Shown in pieces: positions 11,370 to 41,839 of a stretch of 64,000 nucleotides of DNA (position 1 is its first letter; the number at the start of each line of letters is the position of its first letter). The notes below the pieces were generated by a model that did not search any database, was not told the origin of the DNA, and saw only the letters and a program-made list of their open reading frames with translations. The DNA comes from Octopus vulgaris (lineage: Eukaryota): contig OX597814.1 of NCBI GenBank assembly GCA_951406725.2, positions 155,682,001 to 155,746,000 on the forward strand, in the 5' to 3' direction. Made by a program: the position numbers and the translations under genes.

Positions 11370-11461
<92 letters not shown>

Positions 11462-11462
11462 G
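11340..11462. repeat. Compound (CA)n/(TA)n/(TG)n microsatellite
   Basis: Seen directly in the sequence. Confidence 0.95.
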
Positions 11463-11507
11463 TATAAAGTATTGAAGATAAATGCAGGTGCTATACAAAT
11501 CTTTATA

Positions 11508-11594
11508 CTTCCGACATATGTTTCGAAGAAAACATTGGTATTATTCCAGAGGGAATAAAATGATGTAAAATAATGCGATCCTCTCATCAGGAAA
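11508..11594 (-). ncRNA. Type I hammerhead ribozyme with long stem II insert
   Basis: Minus strand reads UUUC-CUGAUGA-GAGGA...(~50 nt)...UCUUC-GAAAC-AUAU-GUC/GGAA. Core intact, stem III palindromic (ACAUAUGU), cleavage triplet GUC. Confidence 0.75.
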
Positions 11595-11916
11595 ACACAC
11601 ACACACATCAGTAAGTCATTTTAACCGAATGTGATGACTGCGTATATGATGAAAGGAACGCTGGTAAGTTATTTTATTTTAAACCGATAACCGATAAAGC
11701 AATTTAAAGAAAGTGGAGGAGAGAGGAGGAGAAAGAAAATATCAGAAAATTAAGAGTGAAGAAATGTAGTGCGATAGGTGAATGAGAATAAAGTTTAAAA
11801 GCGTGGAAATAGTTATATTTAGTGGAAATTAAATGCAAGAAGACAGTTAATGGGGGAATTTTATATATTGGTAGAAATTACTTATAGGAACTAAAGGTAG
11901 GTTTTTGCCAATGTTT

Positions 11917-12270
11917 TCAACGATAAACGCGTTCTTTAAACGTGTTTACAAGAGAATTATCTCTGAACAGGATGTGATAGAGTTCTTCGATACAGAGTGG
12001 ACAGGAAGATTTACCTTTATCATGTGGAAAGGACCTAGAAAGTATATTCCATTCCAAATCAATTTTTTTATTATGTTCATTCAGAAACCAAATTAATTTA
12101 CTAAGCCGAGTATTGTTGCGTTTATTGATATGTCTACATGTAGAGTAATGGTTAGGTATTCTTTTGGACAACTGAGATGAAGAACTACCTATGTAAAAAC
12201 AGACATCAGAAACGGAAATAATTTGACACTGATAAACAGAGTTTCTAATCTTAGATTTACTGCTAAGGAA
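11917..12270 (-). pseudogene. Penelope-type GIY-YIG endonuclease domain remnant
   Basis: Reads NSVYQCQIISVSDVCFYIGSSSSQLSKRIPNHYSTCRH...TRLSKLIWFL...LEWNIL...CPLCIEELYHI...LVN. Contains the VY...YIG, R..NH, LS..IW.L and C.LC..E motifs. Confidence 0.88.
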
Positions 12271-12371
12271 ACGAATGCGATTAAAAAGTAACTTGCCAGT
12301 GTTCCGTTCATCATATACGCAGTCATCACATTCAGTTAAAATGCCTTATTGATGTATGTCGCTCCTTTTTT

Positions 12372-12458
12372 TACCATGACGAGAAGATCGCATTGTTTTA
12401 CATCATTTTATTCCCTCTGGAATAATACCAATGTTTTCTTCGAAACATATGTCGGAAG
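12372..12458 (+). ncRNA. Inverted copy of the same hammerhead, core mutated
   Basis: tacc-atgacga-gaaga...ttcttc-gaaacatatgtc-ggaag; the CUGANGA core reads AUGACGA. Confidence 0.55.
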
Positions 12459-13063
12459 TATAAAGATTTATACTGCGTTTAACTTCATTTCTTTATTCAT
12501 CTGTTATACAAAAGTATTTCACTAAACCCTGGAATTTTTACCTTTATACATTGGCTGTATCATATTTGGCACTTTTGTGAATTTTTTGCTACCCTGGTAA
12601 CTATTTATTTATTTTTCCGTGTTATTTGTACATATTGAAAATATACACACACCAACACATTTAATTTGGGAAGCAGATACATATATGTTCGAATAGCGAG
12701 AAATGGAAGTCAGATAACCTTGCACTGTCTTCAAGGCTAAACAATGTCAACAAAGCATTTTTCTATTCAGCGCCTGCAGAATCAGTATCAATTAGTAATA
12801 GCGTCAATTCAAACGACTACACCCTCCTCTTTCTGTATATTTCTATATGAAACAAAAGAAAATATACTTGCACCATTTGAAATATTTTTTTGAGAATAGA
12901 TGTAGCAGTTTAATATTAAGTTATTTGTAAAACTTTACGCTCAGTGAAATATTGACATATGTGTCTATTTTACTTATGTTACATACATACATACACACTT
13001 ACATACATACAGACATACTTACGTACATACATACACACATACATATATACATGCATGCATACA

Positions 13064-13745: not shown

Positions 13746-14430
13746 ACACTGTACACCATGCCACTTTGCTTTTAATTGACAATTACGTTAAGGGTACACT
13801 ATCTGTACAATACTTAATTACATCGCTTGTTAATTCGATAAATACATCGTCGAATAAATCGACGCTCAAACGTCGAAAGTGATAGACGTGTCCCTTGAAA
13901 TGACGGACAAAATTGCCTTCCGGTATTTTGTTGTAGACCTTTGCATTTTGACATGAACGCTAGCCAATATCAACTTCGACTTAGATTTTTCCGTGGTGAA
14001 TAAAATACCGACTGATGTCGATTAAATCGTTTATATCCATCCCAGTCTCCTGGCAGCTTCAGCTTAGGCTATAAGCCAATATTAGAACAACATGCAATAC
14101 GTCTAAATTCAACGATGTACGACAGAAACTTCTGCTTGACCTATTGACTGCTAAAGTAGTGGTCACGCCTACATAGATGAATCCCAACTTATCTCCTTAT
14201 ACAAAAAAAAGGAAAAGAGATTTTCGATTAATGCGTACCAGAGCAACTTTAACCGAAAATGATGCGATAGACACAACTAAAAGCATTCAACTTAAGTCTG
14301 CTCAATTGGGATTAACCTGGGGCTAGTAAAAGGTACCAAACAGATGTTGAATATGTATGTATCCATGTATGTATGTATATACTTATATACGTACATACAT
14401 ACATACATATAAATATATGCATGCATATCA

Positions 14431-15408
14431 ATGAATGTATATGTATATATATATAACTATGACAGATTGCTCTTACCTTACATGCACTATTTCTCCCCTC
14501 CTCTCTGTCCTTATTATTTTTATATATCTTTTTAGATATTTCATATATATATATATTTATATATCTTTTATATATTTATATATTTATATCTTTTTATTTT
14601 ATTTATAGTTTTAATTGTGAATTTATTTATGTATTTATTTATCTTTATAAATAAAAGACATTTTTAAATTGTAAGAATTGCAAATTATATATATATATAT
14701 ATATAATTTACAATTCTTACAATTAAAAAATCTTTTATTTATAAAAATAAATAAATACATAAATATATATACTTTTTTTACTTTACTTTTTTACTTGTTT
14801 CAGTCATTTGACTGCGGCCATGCTGGAGCACCACCTTTAGTACTTATTCTATCGGTCTCTTTTTGCCGAACCGCTAAGTGACGGGGACCTAAACAGACCA
14901 GCATCGGTTGTCAAACAATGCTAGGGGGACAAACACAGACACACACACACATATACATATATATACATATATACGACAGGCTTCTTTCAGTTTCCGTCTA
15001 CCAAATCCACTCACAAGGCATTGGTCGGCCCGGGGCTATAGCAGAAGACACTTGCCCAAGATGCCACGCAGTGGGACTGAACCCGCAACCGTGTGGTTGG
15101 TTAGCAAGCTACTTACCACACAGCCACTCCTGCGCCTATATATATATATATATATATAATTTACAATTCTTACAATTTAAAAATGTCTTTTATTTATAAA
15201 AATAAATAAATACATAAATAAATTCACAATTAAAACTATAAATAAAATAAAAAGATATAAATATATAAATATATAAAAGATATATAAATATATATATATA
15301 TATATATGAAATATCTAATAAAAATTATAAGGACAGAGAGGAGGGGAGAAATAGTGCATGTAAGGTAAGAGCGATCTGTCATAGTTATATATATACATAT
15401 ACATTCAT
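14431..15408. repeat. Foldback inverted repeat (~260-bp arms) centred on (TA)n, interrupted by a SINE
   Basis: 14431-14690 is the near-exact reverse complement of 15153-15408, for example gacagattgctcttaccttacatgcactatttctcccctcctctctgtcctta. Confidence 0.92.
14772..15136 (-). mobile_element. SINE family B, near full length
   Basis: Reverse complement begins ggcgcaggagtggctgtgtggtaagtagcttgc and ends gcagtcaaatgactgaaacaagtaaaa. Confidence 0.92.
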
Positions 15409-15416
15409 ATTTTAAA

Positions 15417-15469
<53 letters not shown>

Positions 15470-20042: not shown

Positions 20043-20416
20043 CAGATTCGCACGAGTGCATTCGAGTTCGGAATAAGATTATTCAATTTAGCACTAATTT
20101 TACATGTGTGTTTTTACTCACATTCTAAGAAGTGAATGTTTAAAATAACAAATTTAAATGACATGTTTTGCCATGCAGATTTTATTATGTTGTTGTAGCT
20201 ACAAGAAATAAATAAATTACGTGATTCTTCTGTCCACGAAAATCTGTTCACTGCAACATTGTGTTATTTGGTCTGTACTTACTTGGCAGTTTATTTGGAG
20301 GTAAGCGTTTTTTCTGATTGTTGAATTGTTTTGTTTTTGTTGAACTGGCTTTTAATAGTATTGTTAATTGTTTGTTAAACAATTATTGTTTTCCTCTGCG
20401 CGGGGAAACCTACAAT

Positions 20417-21411
20417 ATGGCGAACGGGGAAAAGCAGAGCGTTGAGGAGAGGAGGTACTTGAGCGAGGAGGAGATCGAAAAGAATTGTGTAAAGAAACTT
20501 ATATTAGATTCAGACGAGGAGAGAGAAAGACTAATACCGGCTGCTACAAGGAGAAACATTAATGTACCAAGTTTGATGCCGAAAGAGAAAGAAGAGAAAA
20601 AGAAAGAAAAAGCTAAGGAAAAGCTTGACTTTGCCGCTGTGGTAGGTGCTAGAGTTACAAAGATTACTTCGGCTAATGTGGAGGAACACAAACAAATGAT
20701 GACAAGGGAGGGCCACGGAATTACAGCGGCCCCTTCAAAAAGTATTCTTCAAGATATATAGAGAAAAAATCATAATATACAAAACCTACAAGGTCAACAA
20801 TAAGAGAATTGATTATGCGTTAGCGGCAGAGATTGAGAAGTGTTTTAAGCCTATTTGGCATAAGATAAAGTTCCTAGCAAGAGGTAGAAGGTACGCGACG
20901 GTGGATGTGAGGATGGAGTCGGAGGAAGAAGCTCGATTCCATTCAGTGGAACCCTAAGAACGGGAAAGGTGGTACTTCTACCCATATATATGGGTAGAAG
21001 GACGTCGAAGATTACAATCAGTACTATTCCCCATGAGGTGGACCCAGAGTGGCTCGTAGTGGCAGTGACGATGGGATGGAAGATAAAATATCATTCCTGG
21101 ATGTTGTTATGATGGAGCCAAGAAATTGGCATGGGAAGAGTATGCGTATTATAATTCAAGCCGAACAGACCACACTGGAGAAAATTATTGAGGCCTTTGA
21201 GATTGGTAAGACCCGTCTGGTGGTGACAGTAGAGGGTCGCCAGCCTCGAAGCTTCCAGTGTGGCAAGAAGAGCCATCTCAGGGTAGATTGTAAGCCCAAA
21301 GAGGTTGAAAAGAAGAAAGAAGAAACGGAGGTAGTAGAGATTGAACCGGCGACGCCGGAGCAGAAGACACCAATACCAGTAGAAAGAACACCAATGCCAG
21401 AAAAAAAGTAG
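20417..21411 (+). pseudogene. LINE ORF1/gag-like protein with CCHC zinc knuckle (L1/Tx1-type), at least 3 frameshifts
   Basis: Joined frames read MANGEKQ...LDFAAVVG...KIKFLARGRRYATVDVRMESEEEA...LLPIYMGRRTSKITISTIPHEVDPEWL...RLVVTVEGRQPRSFQCGKKSHLRVDC. The knuckle is CX2CX4HX4C with the first Cys changed to Ser. Confidence 0.75.
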
Positions 21412-21800
21412 GGGAGAGATGGGCTCTTGTGCAGAAGAAGAAAAAAATGAAGCCACCCTCTCCTAAAAAAGAGAAAGAGAAAACATAGGCGAGGCAGATT
21501 AAGAAGCCGAGAAAAACTGAAAGAAAAAAGAAAACAATTGCTACATGGCGGTTCGAATCTCGAATAGAGATCTAGTGAACCGCCTAGCAACTGTATCTGC
21601 AGAAAAATTTGAGGTAGCAGAAACTCAGAAGAAAGGGACTGAAATTTACAAATCGGAAATTTACAAATCGGAAAACTTATATTTTTGCTAATAACTTTCG
21701 TAAAGATGTTGGTGTTCCCAGGTTGGACTTTAACCCAAAAGTGTATGAGAGCCTCATCACTCCGACGCTACGAGCCCGGGAAGGAGAAGAGCCCCCCCCC

Positions 21801-21894
21801 CCCCCCACTGCCTCTAAACACCGACTAAAAAGGTAAGTCTTTATGGCCCCCCCACTGCCTCTAAACACCGACTAAAAAGGTAAGTCTTTATGGC
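21801..21894. repeat. Perfect 47-bp tandem duplication
   Basis: ccccccactgcctctaaacaccgactaaaaaggtaagtctttatggc occurs twice. A 15-bp duplication (gaaatttacaaatcg) lies at 21641-21670. Confidence 0.95.
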
Positions 21895-30788: not shown

Positions 30789-31720
30789 TGTCACGAAATT
30801 GAACAAGAGAAGATTATTGCAATGAAACTGGAGGGAATGAGTGACCAGAAGATTAGCGAGAAGCAGAATGCCAGTGGACAATTTTCTGAAAGAACCTAAC
30901 GGCTACAACAGAGTTCATGCTGACGGACGTTCCAAGGCTACATCAGAAAGGGATGAAAGCGCCATTGTCAGAGTTGTGAAGAAGTCACGCTGGTCTTCTG
31001 TTTCCAAAATTGACGCATCAGCAGAAGTAGGAGTCTCGACAGCCACTGTAAGAAGAGTGATTTTGATTCATGCCCCCACCCCACCCCCAAGAAGCGGCTA
31101 GGACATCCGTTATTGTCGGCTTTCCATAAAACTTAGATTGGAGTTCACTCGGCAGCATCAGTCATGGGATGGTGAATGGACTAGGGCTCTATTCTCTGAT
31201 GAGAAAAAAACGGAATTTGGAAGGCTACGGCGATAGTAAGTATTAATGGGCAGAGAAATGTATACAAAATGCTACATATTCCAAGTGGCGTAACAGCGGA
31301 GGCGGTCTTATGGTCTGAGGAGCAATATCTGCCAATGGGAAGCAGTCACTTGTCATCATGTGTGGACGTTTCAGTGCTGCACGATTCATCGATATACTGG
31401 ACGGGACTCATATTGACGAAGAAGGAAGAAGGCACCGTAGCGTGAAATTCATATTTCATCAGGACAATGCTCCTATTCATAAAACAAAGATAACTTTAAT
31501 TTTCTTTCATGCAATTGGTGTTGAAGTCATGCTATCCCCAGCAGAAAGTGTCGACTTTAATCCTTCAGAGAATGCCAGGCTATATCTCATGAATATTGAG
31601 TTGATTAACTTTCAAGAGCGATATAGTGGGCCTGCAAAGAGCTTCCACTTCATCGGGAGTATGAGAGCATCTGTCTTTGAAGTAGTTCAGAATGGTGGTA
31701 CTCAAACACGCTATTGTTGA
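30789..31720 (+). pseudogene. Decayed Tc1/Tc3-like DD34E transposase
   Basis: Multi-frame peptides EQEKIIAMKLEGMSDQKIS (HTH), GRSKATSERDESAIVR...VSTATVRR, LFSDEKK, GGGLMV*G and FHQDNAPIH-(D to E spacing 34)-DFNPSEN. Confidence 0.9.
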
Positions 31721-34200: not shown

Positions 34201-35099
34201 TGTATGTCTGATTCATTCACTCTTTTCCTTCCCCAGTCTATATTCCCAACGCACATATATACACAGCCTATCTGCGTGTGTTTTTCTACTGATAAAACTA
34301 AAATGAAAATGCAAACATTAATCTTTTAAGAGACAGATATTCAACTTCTTTGTGCATGTTTAACATGCTACCGATATCAACGAGGCAGCGTGTCAGTGAC
34401 CAGGTTGTGAATATAATCCATCAAGTTATTTCCTATAGTATAAAATAAACCAATGAAAAAAATGCCAACATGTGTCGGTTGCATGTTTCAATATTGCTTG
34501 TGTTTAATTAGCAATTAATATGATGAAGTCAAAGAGGCAATGATATTTTATATTGTTTGCATTGATTTTATTGAATATATTTTATTTTTAGATATGAACA
34601 CTAAACTACATGATATCGGCAACATTATATCAGCTCTACACTATATCAACAGCGAGCCTCTACGCGGTAGCTTGGATAATTAGAGTTAGCCACAAACGTG
34701 CAACGTGTGGTTTCTGAGCAATCTGTAACTATATTCAACCCTTTATGAATAGGATAATATAGATTCTTGTAGAATTTGCCCTAATAACGTCATCAACCAT
34801 AAAAAGGGCGTGATCTTATTAGCAATGCCATCGATAATATTCCTACTGAGTTAAGACTGATATTCAGCTAAACAACAACAATGGCAACGAATTCAACGAT
34901 GTCAGAACGTTGACCCAGAAATACGTTGCAACTCTGATTTTCCTTATGGTAAGAAGAGAAATATATTAAGTAAGTATCAAGGGTACTTATTTACTAAACT
35001 TTTCCTAATCAAGTGCTGAGTATAATCTACGTACAATTAACATAAGCCATTCAAAGAAATCATTCTTAAATATATACACACAATACAAAATGTGATGTA

Positions 35100-36712
35100 C
35101 AGTTGCGGCCAAAATGTTCAGAACGGCATTGTTTTCGTCAGAAAAGTAGATATTATTTTTTATCAAAGTTGTTTTATATTCTATAATTTTCACAAACAAT
35201 GAATACAATATTATTTGTTATTGCCTGAGATTTTGGTGTAATTTGAGAGGATAATACAAAAGTTATGAATGATTTAGTGGTTTACTGCAAAACCCATGGT
35301 GGCCAAAATGATCAGAACGGTTGCTTTTACTCCGTGTTTTAGTATATTTAACCGGCGAACTCTAATGTTTTGAATTTGTTTACATGACGGTTCGTTTACT
35401 AAACATTAGTAAGAATATTTGCAGTGTACTTTGTTAATATAATGCCACTTACTCCGTTACCAATTCGTCAGCAGATTATTAAGCTTCGAAGGAAGGATAA
35501 TTTAAGTATTGGTTCTATTGCAAAGATTGTTAACAAGTCAAAAAGTGTTGTACACGGTATTCTTAAGGTCTACGATGATTGTGGTTCGTGTGAAGCAAGA
35601 AAGTTTACAGGTAGGCCAAGAAAAACGACCAAGAGAGAAGATCGTGCTATGGTAAAGTTGGTTAAAAAGGACAGATTTAAAACTGCTGCTGCTGTTTCTC
35701 GGAAAATGAGCATTGTATTGAAGAAAACTTTATCTCGAAAAACTGTGTCTCGTCGTTTAGTTGAACATGACCGACAAGCAAGAGCACCTGCAGTGAAGCC
35801 ACTGATCAGCTCCAAGAATAAAATGTGTCGTCTTACCTTTGCAACCAAACATGTGTTGTGGTCTCAAGAAAAATGGCAAACGGTGCATTTCAGTGATGAA
35901 TCTAAGTTTATGTTATTTGGCTCGTAGAAAAGTAGGTGAAAAATTGTCGCCTAAATGCCTTAAGACTAGTGTTAAATTCGATGGAGGAAGTGTTATGGTT
36001 CGAGGGATAATATCTGGAGATGGTGTGGGCCCTTTGGTGCGATTACATGGAAAGGTAGTAAATGCAGGAGTTTATAAACAACTTGTAAAAGATCATGTCT
36101 TGCCTGTGCTGAGAAATTCAACTAAGCGACCACCCATATTCATGCAGGACAATGCCCCATGTCACAAGGCTAAGGCGGTCATGAACTTCCTTAAGGCTGA
36201 AAAGGTTATTGTTATGGATTGGCCTGATCAAAGACCAGATCGCAATCCTATTGAAAATGTATGGAATATTCTAGGAGAACGTTCGAAAGCCAGAATTCCT
36301 AAAACAACTGAGCAATTATGGAATGCCCATCAGGAAGATTGGAATAAGATCACCCAGCAAGAAATTGAAAATTTCATTTCCTCATACAGTCAAAGATGTC
36401 AGAGTGTGATTGAAGCTAAAGGGCTTCACACTAAATATTAAATAATTCCAGTATTCTCTCTCATTTTTGATTATTTTGTTATTTTTTCAACCGTTCTGAT
36501 CATTTTGGCCGCCATTGGTTTTGCAGTAAATCACTAAATCATCCATAACTTTTGTATTATCCTCTTAAATTACACCAAAATCTCAGACAATGACAATTCA
36601 TATTGTATTTATTCTATGTGAAAATTATAGAATATAAAACTACTTTGATAAAAACATTATATCTACTTTTCTGACGAAAACAATGCCGTTCAGAACATTT
36701 TGGCCGCAACTC
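35100..36712 (+). mobile_element. Tc1-family DNA transposon, IR/DR type, full length with TA TSD
   Basis: TIRs of about 224 bp (35100-35323 and 36488-36712), each with outer and inner direct repeats ggccaaaatgWtcagaacgg. TA at 35098-99 and 36713-14. Confidence 0.97.
35442..36441 (+). pseudogene. Tc1 DD34E transposase with one frameshifting deletion near 35925
   Basis: Paired-like HTH, GRPRKTT linker, VHFSDESKF, then in another frame GGSVMV and FMQDNAPCH-(34)-NPIENVW...KGLHTKY*. Confidence 0.95.
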
Positions 36713-37605
36713 TACATGGAAAAATTTCTTGAAGAATGGAGTTATGTTCCTTTATGATATTATCTGAAAACACATACTGCGCTACTTTTACCATTTTAAT
36801 CGTTAAAATAGTTAAGTTGCAACAATTACTAAGTGTCTCGTCAAATCCATTCTAACCTCACTCAACGAAAGTAACCTTCTACTAAGTTTACAAAGCGTTA
36901 AATATACGAGCTAAATTTGATCTTTCAGCTTCATATAAATTCTAGAGTTGTTACAGATCTCCTACTCATGCATTATTAACTTATAAACAAATTGCTATTA
37001 TATTGTGACTGCCTTTAGCATAGTGAGGACTATATAGAATAAATAATATGCGTATAATCAACAATATTTGAAGACTAGTTCAAATGCCAAACAAAAAGCT
37101 CTGTCTTCATGTGTTACCATTCTGCATTCAAACCCACATATTTTTTGTTTTGTTTTTGCTTCTATATTTATGGAGTCGATGCATTACGATCAATAACATA
37201 CACTTTATTTCACCCTTATAGAATTATATGAAGAGAGAAATACAAAAAACACCTGTTCGGAAATAAATATTTTATATATTGCATCCTCAGACGAAGAAAG
37301 ACGCGATGCGCTTGTTTTCGTTTTTCTTTTCTTTTTGCGGAACATCTGAATCTTGTTGGAAAAAATGGGCGAAGAACCTCGACTCCTTGGTTAATTTTGA
37401 AATAGATATCCAGTTTTAAAAGTGCACTTAGTTACAGACACACTAAAGACGCCAAGGAATGATGTAAAATGAACAACCTATTATATCTAGTGCCAAACTG
37501 ATCAACTTATCATTATGTATGATACAAAAATATATTTTCTACGAAACGTGATATTTAATCGGAATGATTTGGAATTCGAAAAGAAACATTCTAATATTCT
37601 AATAT

Positions 37606-39120: not shown

Positions 39121-39157
<37 letters not shown>

Positions 39158-39242
39158 TTAGAGACAAAACCACTATTTTGCAAAACAAACAAGGAAAGAC
39201 TTAATCAATACATAAAATTTTAATAAAAAGTCAAAAAAACCG

Positions 39243-39285
39243 CCACTACAATTGTTTCTTGTCTTGATCGACAATCTTCAGGTGG
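39243..39285 (-). ncRNA. Intact minimal type I hammerhead ribozyme
   Basis: Minus strand reads CCAC-CUGAAGA-UUGUC-GAUCAA-GACAA-GAAAC-AAUU-GUA/GUGG. Stem I CCAC/GUGG and stem II UUGUC/GACAA pair perfectly, all core residues are present, stem III is the palindrome ACAAUUGU and the cleavage triplet is GUA. Confidence 0.9.
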
Positions 39286-39654
39286 ACTTCCAATCTAAAA
39301 TATCAATATTTTAAAATATAAAAATAATAATTTTAAAATAATTAAAGTATTAATGAAAAAATATAAATATATAATCTATTTATAACCTATATATAATCCA
39401 TATATAATCAATATATAAACAATATATAAACTAAAATAAACCTATCAACAATTAAATATAAAATATAAAATATAAAATATAAAACAAAACAAAAATAAAC
39501 TATATATACACCCATACACATATAACTAATTATATATAACCATATCTAAATACATACACTAAATCACACACCTATATATATATATCCCTATACATACACA
39601 TAAAAACGTCTAGGCAACGATAAATAAATAAAATAGCTAAATACTTCAACACTA

Positions 39655-41665
39655 CTACGAATTCCTTATCAAAACTACCATGATAAACCAAAACTCATAA
39701 AAACATATAATGATAAAATCTCCCTTTACTAAACTCTATAACATACCTATATAGCAATCCCCCTAACCTAAACATTCACACACAAATACACACACGTAAA
39801 CCACACACCCACGACATATACAAATACCCACCCCACTTACACATACCTATACATACATATAAACCACAACATATACTCCAAAAACCCACTCAACCCCACA
39901 CAGACAAATAAACACATACATCCCCAAACCTAAATAGCAAACCCATAAACACATTCACACACAAATATACATACGTAAAACACACACCATATACATATAC
40001 ATACTCACCAAACTCGATATATACAACAATATTAACACACCCACATTCATACAGATAAACAAACTACACAACCAAAATACGCACACACTCACACACAATC
40101 CCACATACATAAACACTCCAAAGAAAAACAACATTATTACACATAATACGATATATAATATACATCGTAAGTAACCAGAATATCAAAAATAACAATATGA
40201 CATAAGGAGAAATAATATACATACTTTCAAGTCAGTTTCAAATTATGAAGTGAAATTAAATTCTAATCCGTTAAAAAGATCAAACCAAATTACGTTACCA
40301 TAGGAACATAACTTATGTATAAAAAGAATACGCGCTATTGAAGCAAACCTCACTTAAAATTATGAATGGAGAAATAGAATAAATGGAATTAAAAATTATA
40401 TACACGCGGTAAACCAACATTATTTAAAAAAATTATGAATGGATTCTTTTATAAAACTACCATGATAAACTAAAACTCACAAAAAACATAAATGATAAAA
40501 CCTCCCTTTACTAATCCCTATAACATACTTATATAGCAATCCCTTTAACCTATACATTCACACACAAATACACACACGTAAACCACACACCCATAACAAA
40601 TACAAACACCCACCCCACCCACACACACCCACAAGTACATATAAGCCTCAACATATACACCAAACAAAATTACGTTACCAAGGAACTTAACATATGTATA
40701 AAAAGTATTCCCGCTCTGGAAACGAACATCTTTTAAAATTATGAATGGAGAAATGGAATAAATGGAATTAAAAATAATATTCACGTGGCAAAACGAACAC
40801 CACTCAAAAATTATGAATGAAACAATGTAATAAAACAACAAACATCGTAAATAGACAAATTACCACGAATTCCCTAAAAAAAACCATGATAAACCAAAAC
40901 TCATAAAAACATATAACGATAAAATCTCCCTTTGCTAAACTCTATAACAAACCTATATAGCAATCCCCCTAACCTAAACATTCACACACAAATACACACA
41001 CGTAAACCACAGACCCACGACTTATACAAATACCCACCTCACTCACACATACCTATACTAACTTATAAACCTCAATATGCACCAAAAACCCACTCCCTCC
41101 CCACACAGACGAAATAACACATACATCCCCAAACCTATATAACAAACCCATATACACATTCACACACAAACACACACACACGCAAAACACACACACACAA
41201 CAGATACATATACTCCCTCACATATACGCATATACATACTCACTAAACTCGATATATACAACAATATTTACACACCCACACTCATACAGATAAATAAATT
41301 ATACAACTAAAAAACGCACACACTCACACACAATCTCACATACATAAACACTCCAATAAAAACAACATTAAATACATCGTAATTAACCAGAATATCAAAA
41401 ATAACAATATGACATAAGGAGAAATAAAATACATACTTACAAGTCAGTTTCAAATTATGAAGTGAAATTAAATTCTAAGCCGTTAAAAAAATCAAACCAA
41501 AAATTACGTTACCATAGAAACATAACTAATGTATAAAAAGAATACGCGCCATGGAAAGCAAACGTCATTTAAAATTATGAATGGAGAAATAGAATAAATG
41601 GAACTAAAAACTATATCCACGTGGCAAACCAACACTACTTAAAAAAATTATTATGAATGGATTAT
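39655..41665. repeat. Tandem array of three C/A-rich units (~800, ~380 internally deleted, ~800 bp)
   Basis: ccatgataaacYaaaactca...ctccctttRctaa...cattcacacacaaatacacacacgtaaaccaca and aaattacgttacca...ttatgaatggagaaatRgaataaatggaa recur in units starting at about 39655, 40452 and 40862. Confidence 0.92.
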
Positions 41666-41839
41666 TTAATATACACCAAACAAAATTCATGTGTGAAAAA
41701 TAATTGTTGTATTAAAAATATATAAGTAAATAAATATGAATATGTATAAAAAATATATGTAAATATGTATAAATATATAATGTATGTGACAGTTTAAAAG
41801 TTTTGAATTACGATCGTTTCAAAGAAGTGTTGTTCCTAT

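Follow-up and report, generated by a model that had tools for sequence, protein, structure and literature searches.

A 43-nt minimal type I hammerhead on the minus strand of Octopus vulgaris DNA lies within the terminus of an abundant repeat, at ~39150-39294, whose fixed end meets AT/TA-rich flanks. All positions are those of the window, the whole stretch of 64,000 nucleotides analysed here, in which the hammerhead occupies 39243-39285. We consider it likely that this hammerhead terminus is the 3′ end of a family mobilised by Penelope-like elements (PLEs). Judging from its sequence features, the parent is likely a TA-targeting PLE family of the Hydra type, with the terminus as its pseudo-LTR (pLTR) end; this parent may be autonomous and possess a long 3′ UTR, or it may be a passenger that codes for nothing. 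The ribozyme is predicted to cut only as a pair of copies joined by its palindrome, and folding predictions make the activity of the copy at 39243-39285 doubtful.

The hammerhead motif

On the minus strand from 39285 to 39243 the motif consists of CCAC / CUGAAGA / UUGUC-GAUCAA-GACAA / GAAA / CAAUUG / UA / GUGG. Stem I is formed by 39282-39285 and 39243-39246 (four Watson-Crick pairs), after which it ends with no visible defined loop 1. The core residues CUGAAGA (39275-39281) and GAAA (39255-39258) flank helix II (39259-39274; 5 bp), so that the motif combines the core CUGANGA, GAAA and UH with stems I and II. Helix II closes with a U10.1-A11.1 pair and not with G10.1-C11.1, which is conserved in type I hammerheads without being obligatory. 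Fold prediction assigns helix III to 39248-39255, the 8-nt palindrome ACAAUUGU. By the rules of hammerhead numbering, cleavage would fall 3′ of the triplet GUA, which puts the predicted cut between 39247 and 39246.

A sequence-only reading of this DNA had announced a 'perfect' minimal hammerhead in 43 nt, with a palindromic stem III, a cut between 39247 and 39246 and a further run of about 90 nt into (TA)n. The core, the pairing of stems I and II, the palindrome and the run into (TA)n were all recovered, and the proposed cut agrees with the predicted position next to the GUA triplet. 'Perfect', however, goes too far for a motif whose helix II closes with U-A and to which Rfam is blind. The check that had been proposed with Infernal and Rfam came out negative: the scan of the whole window at gathering score gave no match, and a scan of 1 kb up to E=10 returned 11 weak matches, none of them to hammerhead families.

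An abundant repeat with a fixed end

The (TA)n tract lies ~90 nt further 3′ of the hammerhead, at 39122-39155 (17.5 units), and is the probable insertion target. Between the two stretches the U-rich 3′ tail of the repeat, ~90 nt long (39150-39242, minus strand), as recognised from aligned contigs of four runs. The stretch 39150-39320 was present in part in 21 of the 24 public runs listed, and at least half of 15 sampled words from it were found in 20 of the 24. Ten studies, with five organism codes between them, contributed the runs with terminus words; one of the codes may be that of the source sample. Some of these runs comprise only 21-61 million letters.

We compared 39156-39294 (139 bases) with the contigs of four runs, each taken from a different study and together covering three organism codes. 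Matching contigs numbered 570, 1,308, 208 and 68, and in each run ~70-80% of them were at least 95% alike. All four runs had loose ends at 39157 (26, 24, 3 and 3 contigs), at which a few common letters were followed by AT/TA-rich flanks, as judged from the 23 loose ends listed out of 75 and from 32 pieces out of 2,162. These shared loose ends running into AT/TA-rich sequence indicate that the family ends at ~39150. Summed depth was several-fold greater near the repeat end than over the hammerhead in four of four runs, which hints at 5′ truncation only weakly, since the measure does not equal copy number and is subject to edge effects.

Differences from the stretch at a level of at least 3% were confined to 39222, 39226, 39232, 39236 and 39240 (four substitutions and one deletion). 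None lay within the hammerhead, but 39156-39221 was likewise free of them in the four runs, so that the hammerhead does not stand out as preferentially conserved. Subfamily indels occurred at ~39204-39206 and at 39229. One 66-nt contig over 39229-39294 had no differences at all. Two variants were seen among the loose ends listed. That of run X16 (one contig) has CUGAUGA, then AUGUC and a different loop 2; that of run X2 (three contigs) has U in place of the A before GAAA. Taken together, these variants, which come from different contigs and runs, could represent a compensatory change at 10.1-11.1.

As a single case, one X19 contig left the stretch at 39242 and entered (CA)n, so that this copy breaks off 4 nt away from the predicted cut. 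None of the runs with terminus words is listed as RNA; X19, which consists of assembled contigs, is RNA only by presumption.

A Penelope-like insertion of the same plan within the window

By its sequence features, 11460-12500 is a truncated Hydra-type Penelope-like insertion. Its type I hammerhead (11505-11598, minus strand), found with the wider descriptor, is of a different family and has a long helix II (a 59-nt region) and the 8-nt palindrome ACAUAUGU. Some 50 nt separate it from (TA)n, and ~320 nt upstream of it lies an ORF remnant with GIY-YIG (11917-12345, minus strand), which was identified by Pfam, relatives and tblastn. The GIY-YIG match scored 22.4 bits against a Pfam cut-off of 22.6 (E 1.5×10−4). 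An inverted copy of this end, with a damaged core, is present at 12285-12500.

The GIY-YIG remnant had 1,322 relatives at E≤0.001, and in the longest of these, motifs of reverse transcriptase (RT) were recognised by eye together with CxxC/CxH motifs and a linker resembling CxCX5C. Pfam reported nothing in eight of eight relatives tested, 161 candidates contained no longer homologue of the in-window GIY-YIG, and a metagenome search for related loci with a single protein gave none in 31. Using 150 relatives and a profile, tblastn located PLE coding sequence in the window only at 11761-12282 and found no RT or GIY-YIG sequence attached to the 39243-39285 end. The lack of an ORF at 39243-39285 is expected of a truncated or non-coding copy.

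With its GIY-YIG remnant, palindrome and (TA)n end, this insertion shows that PLE ends built to the same plan occur in the genome. It is unsupported as the parent of the 39243-39285 end, since the ends at 11460-12500 and 39150-39294 have no alignable sequence in common.

The upstream tract and its A>G excess

Upstream of the hammerhead on the sense strand, an AT-rich linker is followed by a non-coding, G/U-rich and C-poor tract of internally duplicated units (39620-41680, minus strand). The units are 74-88% alike. Read on the hammerhead strand, the tract is ~47% T and 24% G, with C making up 6-8%. Its GC skew on the plus strand is −0.62, compared with −0.17 to +0.20 in the rest of the window (567 overlapping windows). 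The skew stops at a degenerate TA-rich tract at 41720-41788, a candidate far boundary. The tblastn search with 150 relatives and the profile found no PLE protein match in 39620-41680, which is possibly the 3′ UTR or body of the hammerhead element.

Changes among the duplicated units were unequal between the strands. On the hammerhead strand A>G changes affected 20 of 91 sites and T>C changes 6 of 191, a sevenfold excess (p=1.2×10−6) counted over three copies polarised by majority, an unreliable polarisation; a fourth A-type unit, which aligns only partly, was excluded. By unit type the counts were 11/45 versus 4/103 and 9/46 versus 2/88. In the same units G>A (14/94) and C>T (4/29) were equal, and none of three control sets of SINE-like sequence showed the A>G excess (p=1.0, 0.26 and 0.76). 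RNA editing by ADAR has a neighbour preference in which a 5′ G is depleted. No such depletion accompanied the A>G changes (G precedes 4 of the 20 changes and 11 of all 91 A sites), and an ADAR reading of the excess is therefore without context support. Turnover of TA/TG microsatellites could be the source of the A/G differences.

We regard as unlikely the broader proposal that 39122 to ~41750 (2.5 kb) is a single protein-free passenger of Penelope enzymes, A-to-I-edited over rounds of retrotransposition. Such a passenger would be far longer than a retrozyme, its 3′ end would bear a single hammerhead dependent on dimer formation, and the A>G excess among its duplicated units would be the trace of the editing. 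If the proposal were true, the passenger would constitute a genomic record of germ-line RNA editing, and the strand-specific A>G excess is the only part of this work able to surprise specialists, provided that the tract belongs to the element.

Other features of the window

Several further repeats were observed. A Tc1/mariner-type transposon at 35095-36717 has inverted repeats of ~230 bp (93% alike) and a transposase that is split (HTH_Tnp_Tc3_2, DDE_3), and a further DDE_3 fragment lies at 31319-31720. At 14376-15464 a 331-bp inverted repeat (90%) surrounds SINE-like sequence, and 14621-14768 form a palindrome of 148 bp. A GC-richer island at 20318-21894 contains Lys/Glu-rich ORF fragments and a degenerate zinc-knuckle-like stretch, FQCGKKSHLRVDC; its ORF fragments had no Pfam match, and it is possibly the remnant of a retrotransposon ORF1 or gag. 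A 21-bp tandem repeat at 235-478 (11 copies) is open in several frames.

Alternative origins of the terminus

The sequence-only reading had assigned the motif to a PLE or retrozyme family. The PLE assignment gains from the high-copy fixed end and from the architecture of the minimal hammerhead (min-HHR); the retrozyme assignment is not supported, since neither a tandem unit nor a second copy was found. We think it improbable that 39243-39285 is a fragment of a non-LTR retrozyme, in which a short tandem unit would be cleaved into monomers that circularise and are then copied by a PLE enzyme. The surroundings of the motif are non-coding, as would suit such an origin, and the boundary to the pLTRs of PLEs is soft: retrozymes are reported as PLE derivatives related to pLTRs (bioRxiv 10.64898/2026.07.22.740005). 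Metazoan non-LTR retrozymes, as described there and in PMC7229834, share with 39243-39285 the non-coding context, a type I hammerhead and a likely dependence on PLE enzymes. However, the motif is single and no tandem unit contains it, and descriptor searches detected no hammerhead in the duplicated units upstream. Unit-to-unit joints were found in none of the four runs, for which 39156-39294 is too short a stretch to provide a strong test. Moreover, PMC7229834 describes retrozymes as carrying canonical hammerheads in tandem repeats of 150-450 bp and ascribes minimal hammerheads to PLEs. The motif studied here appears minimal rather than canonical and has no such tandem unit.

Just as small, in our estimate, is the chance that the terminus belongs to an abundant repeat outside the PLEs, whether SINE- or LINE-dependent or unclassified, that took up a PLE hammerhead. 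Neither PLE coding sequence nor a pLTR duplication was found at 39243-39285, the window yielding no further copy of the repeat end in either orientation, direct or inverted, and the motif departs from 25 of 25 Hydra examples in PMC8557442 at 11.1 and in the length of helix III, all of which speaks for this explanation. Against it, the window holds no tRNA-like head, the terminus has no similarity to the window's SINE-like repeats, and both the (TA)n end and the distance from hammerhead to end fit PLEs.

Folding and predicted activity

In the isolated 43-mer, the monomer was predicted to form stem I with a pair probability of 0.75-0.94 and stem II with 0.59-0.68, and helix III with only 0.03. 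When two copies were folded together, the active dimer was the minimum free energy (MFE) structure of the dimer, at −22.0 kcal/mol compared with 2×−6.5 (−13.0) kcal/mol, and pairing of ACAAUUGU between the copies gave a predicted 8-bp duplex of −6.4 kcal/mol. This preference of the bare motif arises largely because the palindrome is self-complementary and does not prove activity. When native flanks of increasing length were included (53, 65, 95 and 139 nt in total), the dimer MFE was lower than the active dimer by 1.0, 4.6, 9.0 and 12.9 kcal/mol, values that are upper-bound estimates with the flanks folded separately. In the 139-nt context of the terminus, the probability of stem I in the monomer fell to 0.007 and that of stem II to at most 0.18.

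No second copy of the hammerhead and no cis partner for a dimer was found in the 64-kb window. The other in-window hammerhead (11505-11598) differs from that at 39243-39285 in palindrome and stem I, and its own fold in isolation is likewise improbable. The earlier suggestion of cleavage as a dimer thus holds for the predicted folding of the isolated motif, but the flanks are predicted to disfavour the active fold. 'Potentially active' is doubtful for the 39243-39285 copy, which has no partner in the window and whose stems are predicted to be improbable in the 139-nt context.

In the 3′ tail, a hairpin at 39198-39232 (minus strand), closed by GACUU/AAGUC, was present in both the MFE and the centroid structure. 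Folding of the tail overall was not significant (z=0.24), and subfamily indels fall in and around this hairpin.

These predictions also bear on the idea that the copy at 39243-39285 has been domesticated as an active ribozyme for processing a host transcript, which we judge very improbable. The core is intact and the copy is close to the family majority, as illustrated by the 66-nt contig, but recent insertion would give the same closeness. The unstable helix III of the monomer, the improbable stems in context and the lack of a partner copy in the window all count against domestication, as does the absence of cleavage reported for a minimal PLE hammerhead as a monomer (PMC4209133).

Chance occurrence of the motif

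A compact type I descriptor matched 39243-39285 and nothing else on both strands of the 64 kb. In block-wise dinucleotide shuffles, a loose descriptor matched in 5 of 500, the compact descriptor in 1 of 500 and the compact descriptor with a 5-bp stem II in 0 of 500; when a wider descriptor with a palindromic helix III was used, any match occurred in 7 of 1000 shuffles and the compact form with an 8-nt palindrome in 0 of 1000, all with thresholds picked after the motif was known. As a control, we examined matches to the core and palindrome in viral contigs, and 24 of 24 were without stems (stem I of at most one pair). The exact motif was absent from metagenome contigs (0 matches), and the terminal 25-mer was absent from prokaryote genomes (0 matches). 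A search for promoter and terminator patterns found none; the consensus used is bacterial and hence not informative.

A chance match within AT-rich DNA, to which the unremarkable folding energy of the monomer relative to shuffles (z=−0.48) and the lack of an Rfam match might point, is extremely improbable in view of the shuffles (0/500 and 0/1000), the absence of stems from all 24 chance matches in viral contigs and the variant in another organism's run (one contig), which keeps the core as CUGAUGA with an altered loop 2. Chance origin of the 39243-39285 motif is thus largely refuted.

Proposed mechanism

PLEs nick their target with a GIY-YIG endonuclease and insert by target-primed reverse transcription, with frequent 5′ truncation of the copies. 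For the PLE-mobilised family proposed here, the GIY-YIG endonuclease would nick (TA)n, and the reverse transcriptase would prime at the 3′ end of the RNA, ~90 nt past the hammerhead. Reverse transcription would then leave mostly 5′-truncated copies. In tandem transcripts, two copies could pair through an 8-bp helix III while exchanging their stems I, and the paired copies would cut after GUA, trimming the transcript to unit-length RNA.

The inserted copy spans the cut site, which implies that its template RNA was uncut and fits a ribozyme that is inactive without a partner. As a lone copy with neither partner nor coding part, the insertion at 39243-39285 is probably dead.

Comparison with known hammerheads and elements

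Minimal hammerheads at Penelope ends number thousands per genome in many animals, including an octopus Hydra family (PMC4209133; PMC8557442). For cephalopods, the literature gives 235 Rfam hammerhead hits in the giant squid (PMC6962438) and 31 recently active Penelope-like families in O. vulgaris (PMC13282606). The family of 39243-39285 was not found described in the literature searched, as far as accessible, or in the available part of the PMC8557442 supplement, and may be present in Repbase or Dfam. Nine of ten window words were absent from the accessible consensus supplement of Craig et al. 2021 (PMC8557442), in a search that misses matches spanning line breaks. One 8-letter window word occurs twice in that supplement, in an unrelated Chlamys sequence.

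The min-HHR of metazoan PLE pLTRs, as described in PMC4209133, resembles the motif at 39243-39285 in its short helix I (4-5 bp) and palindromic helix III, and dimer-dependent cleavage is predicted for both. There, a single minimal PLE motif did not cleave, whereas dimers and trimers cleaved at a low level. Most min-HHRs are single dispersed motifs, which are ascribed to truncated PLEs, and single truncated ends are common (PMC4209133). Unlike the min-HHRs, the motif studied here lacks G10.1-C11.1, a pair called highly conserved in the same paper, and a flanking second pLTR; its helix II has 5 bp compared with 7-8 bp in Schistosoma.

The closest parallels are found in the Hydra clade, whose hallmarks are a CxCX5C linker, CxxC/CxH and no CCHH, and nearly all of whose families insert in (TA)n (PMC8557442). 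File S2 of that paper has 26 Hydra rows, representing 25 families by our own counts. Fifteen of these families have U after the core, 11 have the GUA triplet and eight have a UGCC/GGCA helix II. The 10.1/11.1 pair is U.U in 14, G-C in seven, G.U in three, U.C in one and U-A in none. Helix III has 9-10 nt in 25 of 25, and none has a perfect 8-nt helix III. Six Hydra consensus sequences end ~30-105 nt past the hammerhead.

Set against these hammerheads, the motif at 39243-39285 differs in its U-A pair at 10.1-11.1, its perfect 8-nt helix III and the lack of an attached ORF, and its sequence is not that of Hydra-1_Obim from Octopus bimaculoides (PMC8557442). An A before GAA occurs in none of the 25 families; the U before GAAA seen in the X2 loose end occurs in 17 of them. 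The shared features are type I topology, a 4-bp stem I, U after CUGANGA, a short helix II of the UGYC/GRCA type, GUA, a near-palindromic helix III, an element end 30-105 nt downstream and a (TA)n target. The helix II found here, UGUC/GACA, is one compensatory swap away from the Hydra form UGCC/GGCA.

The motif is a handy small substrate for asking if cleavage by PLE hammerheads takes place in vivo and if it requires a dimer; many known PLE hammerhead motifs would serve equally well. What 39243-39285 adds to the known systems is a high-copy family together with a natural U-A variant at the closing pair of helix II.
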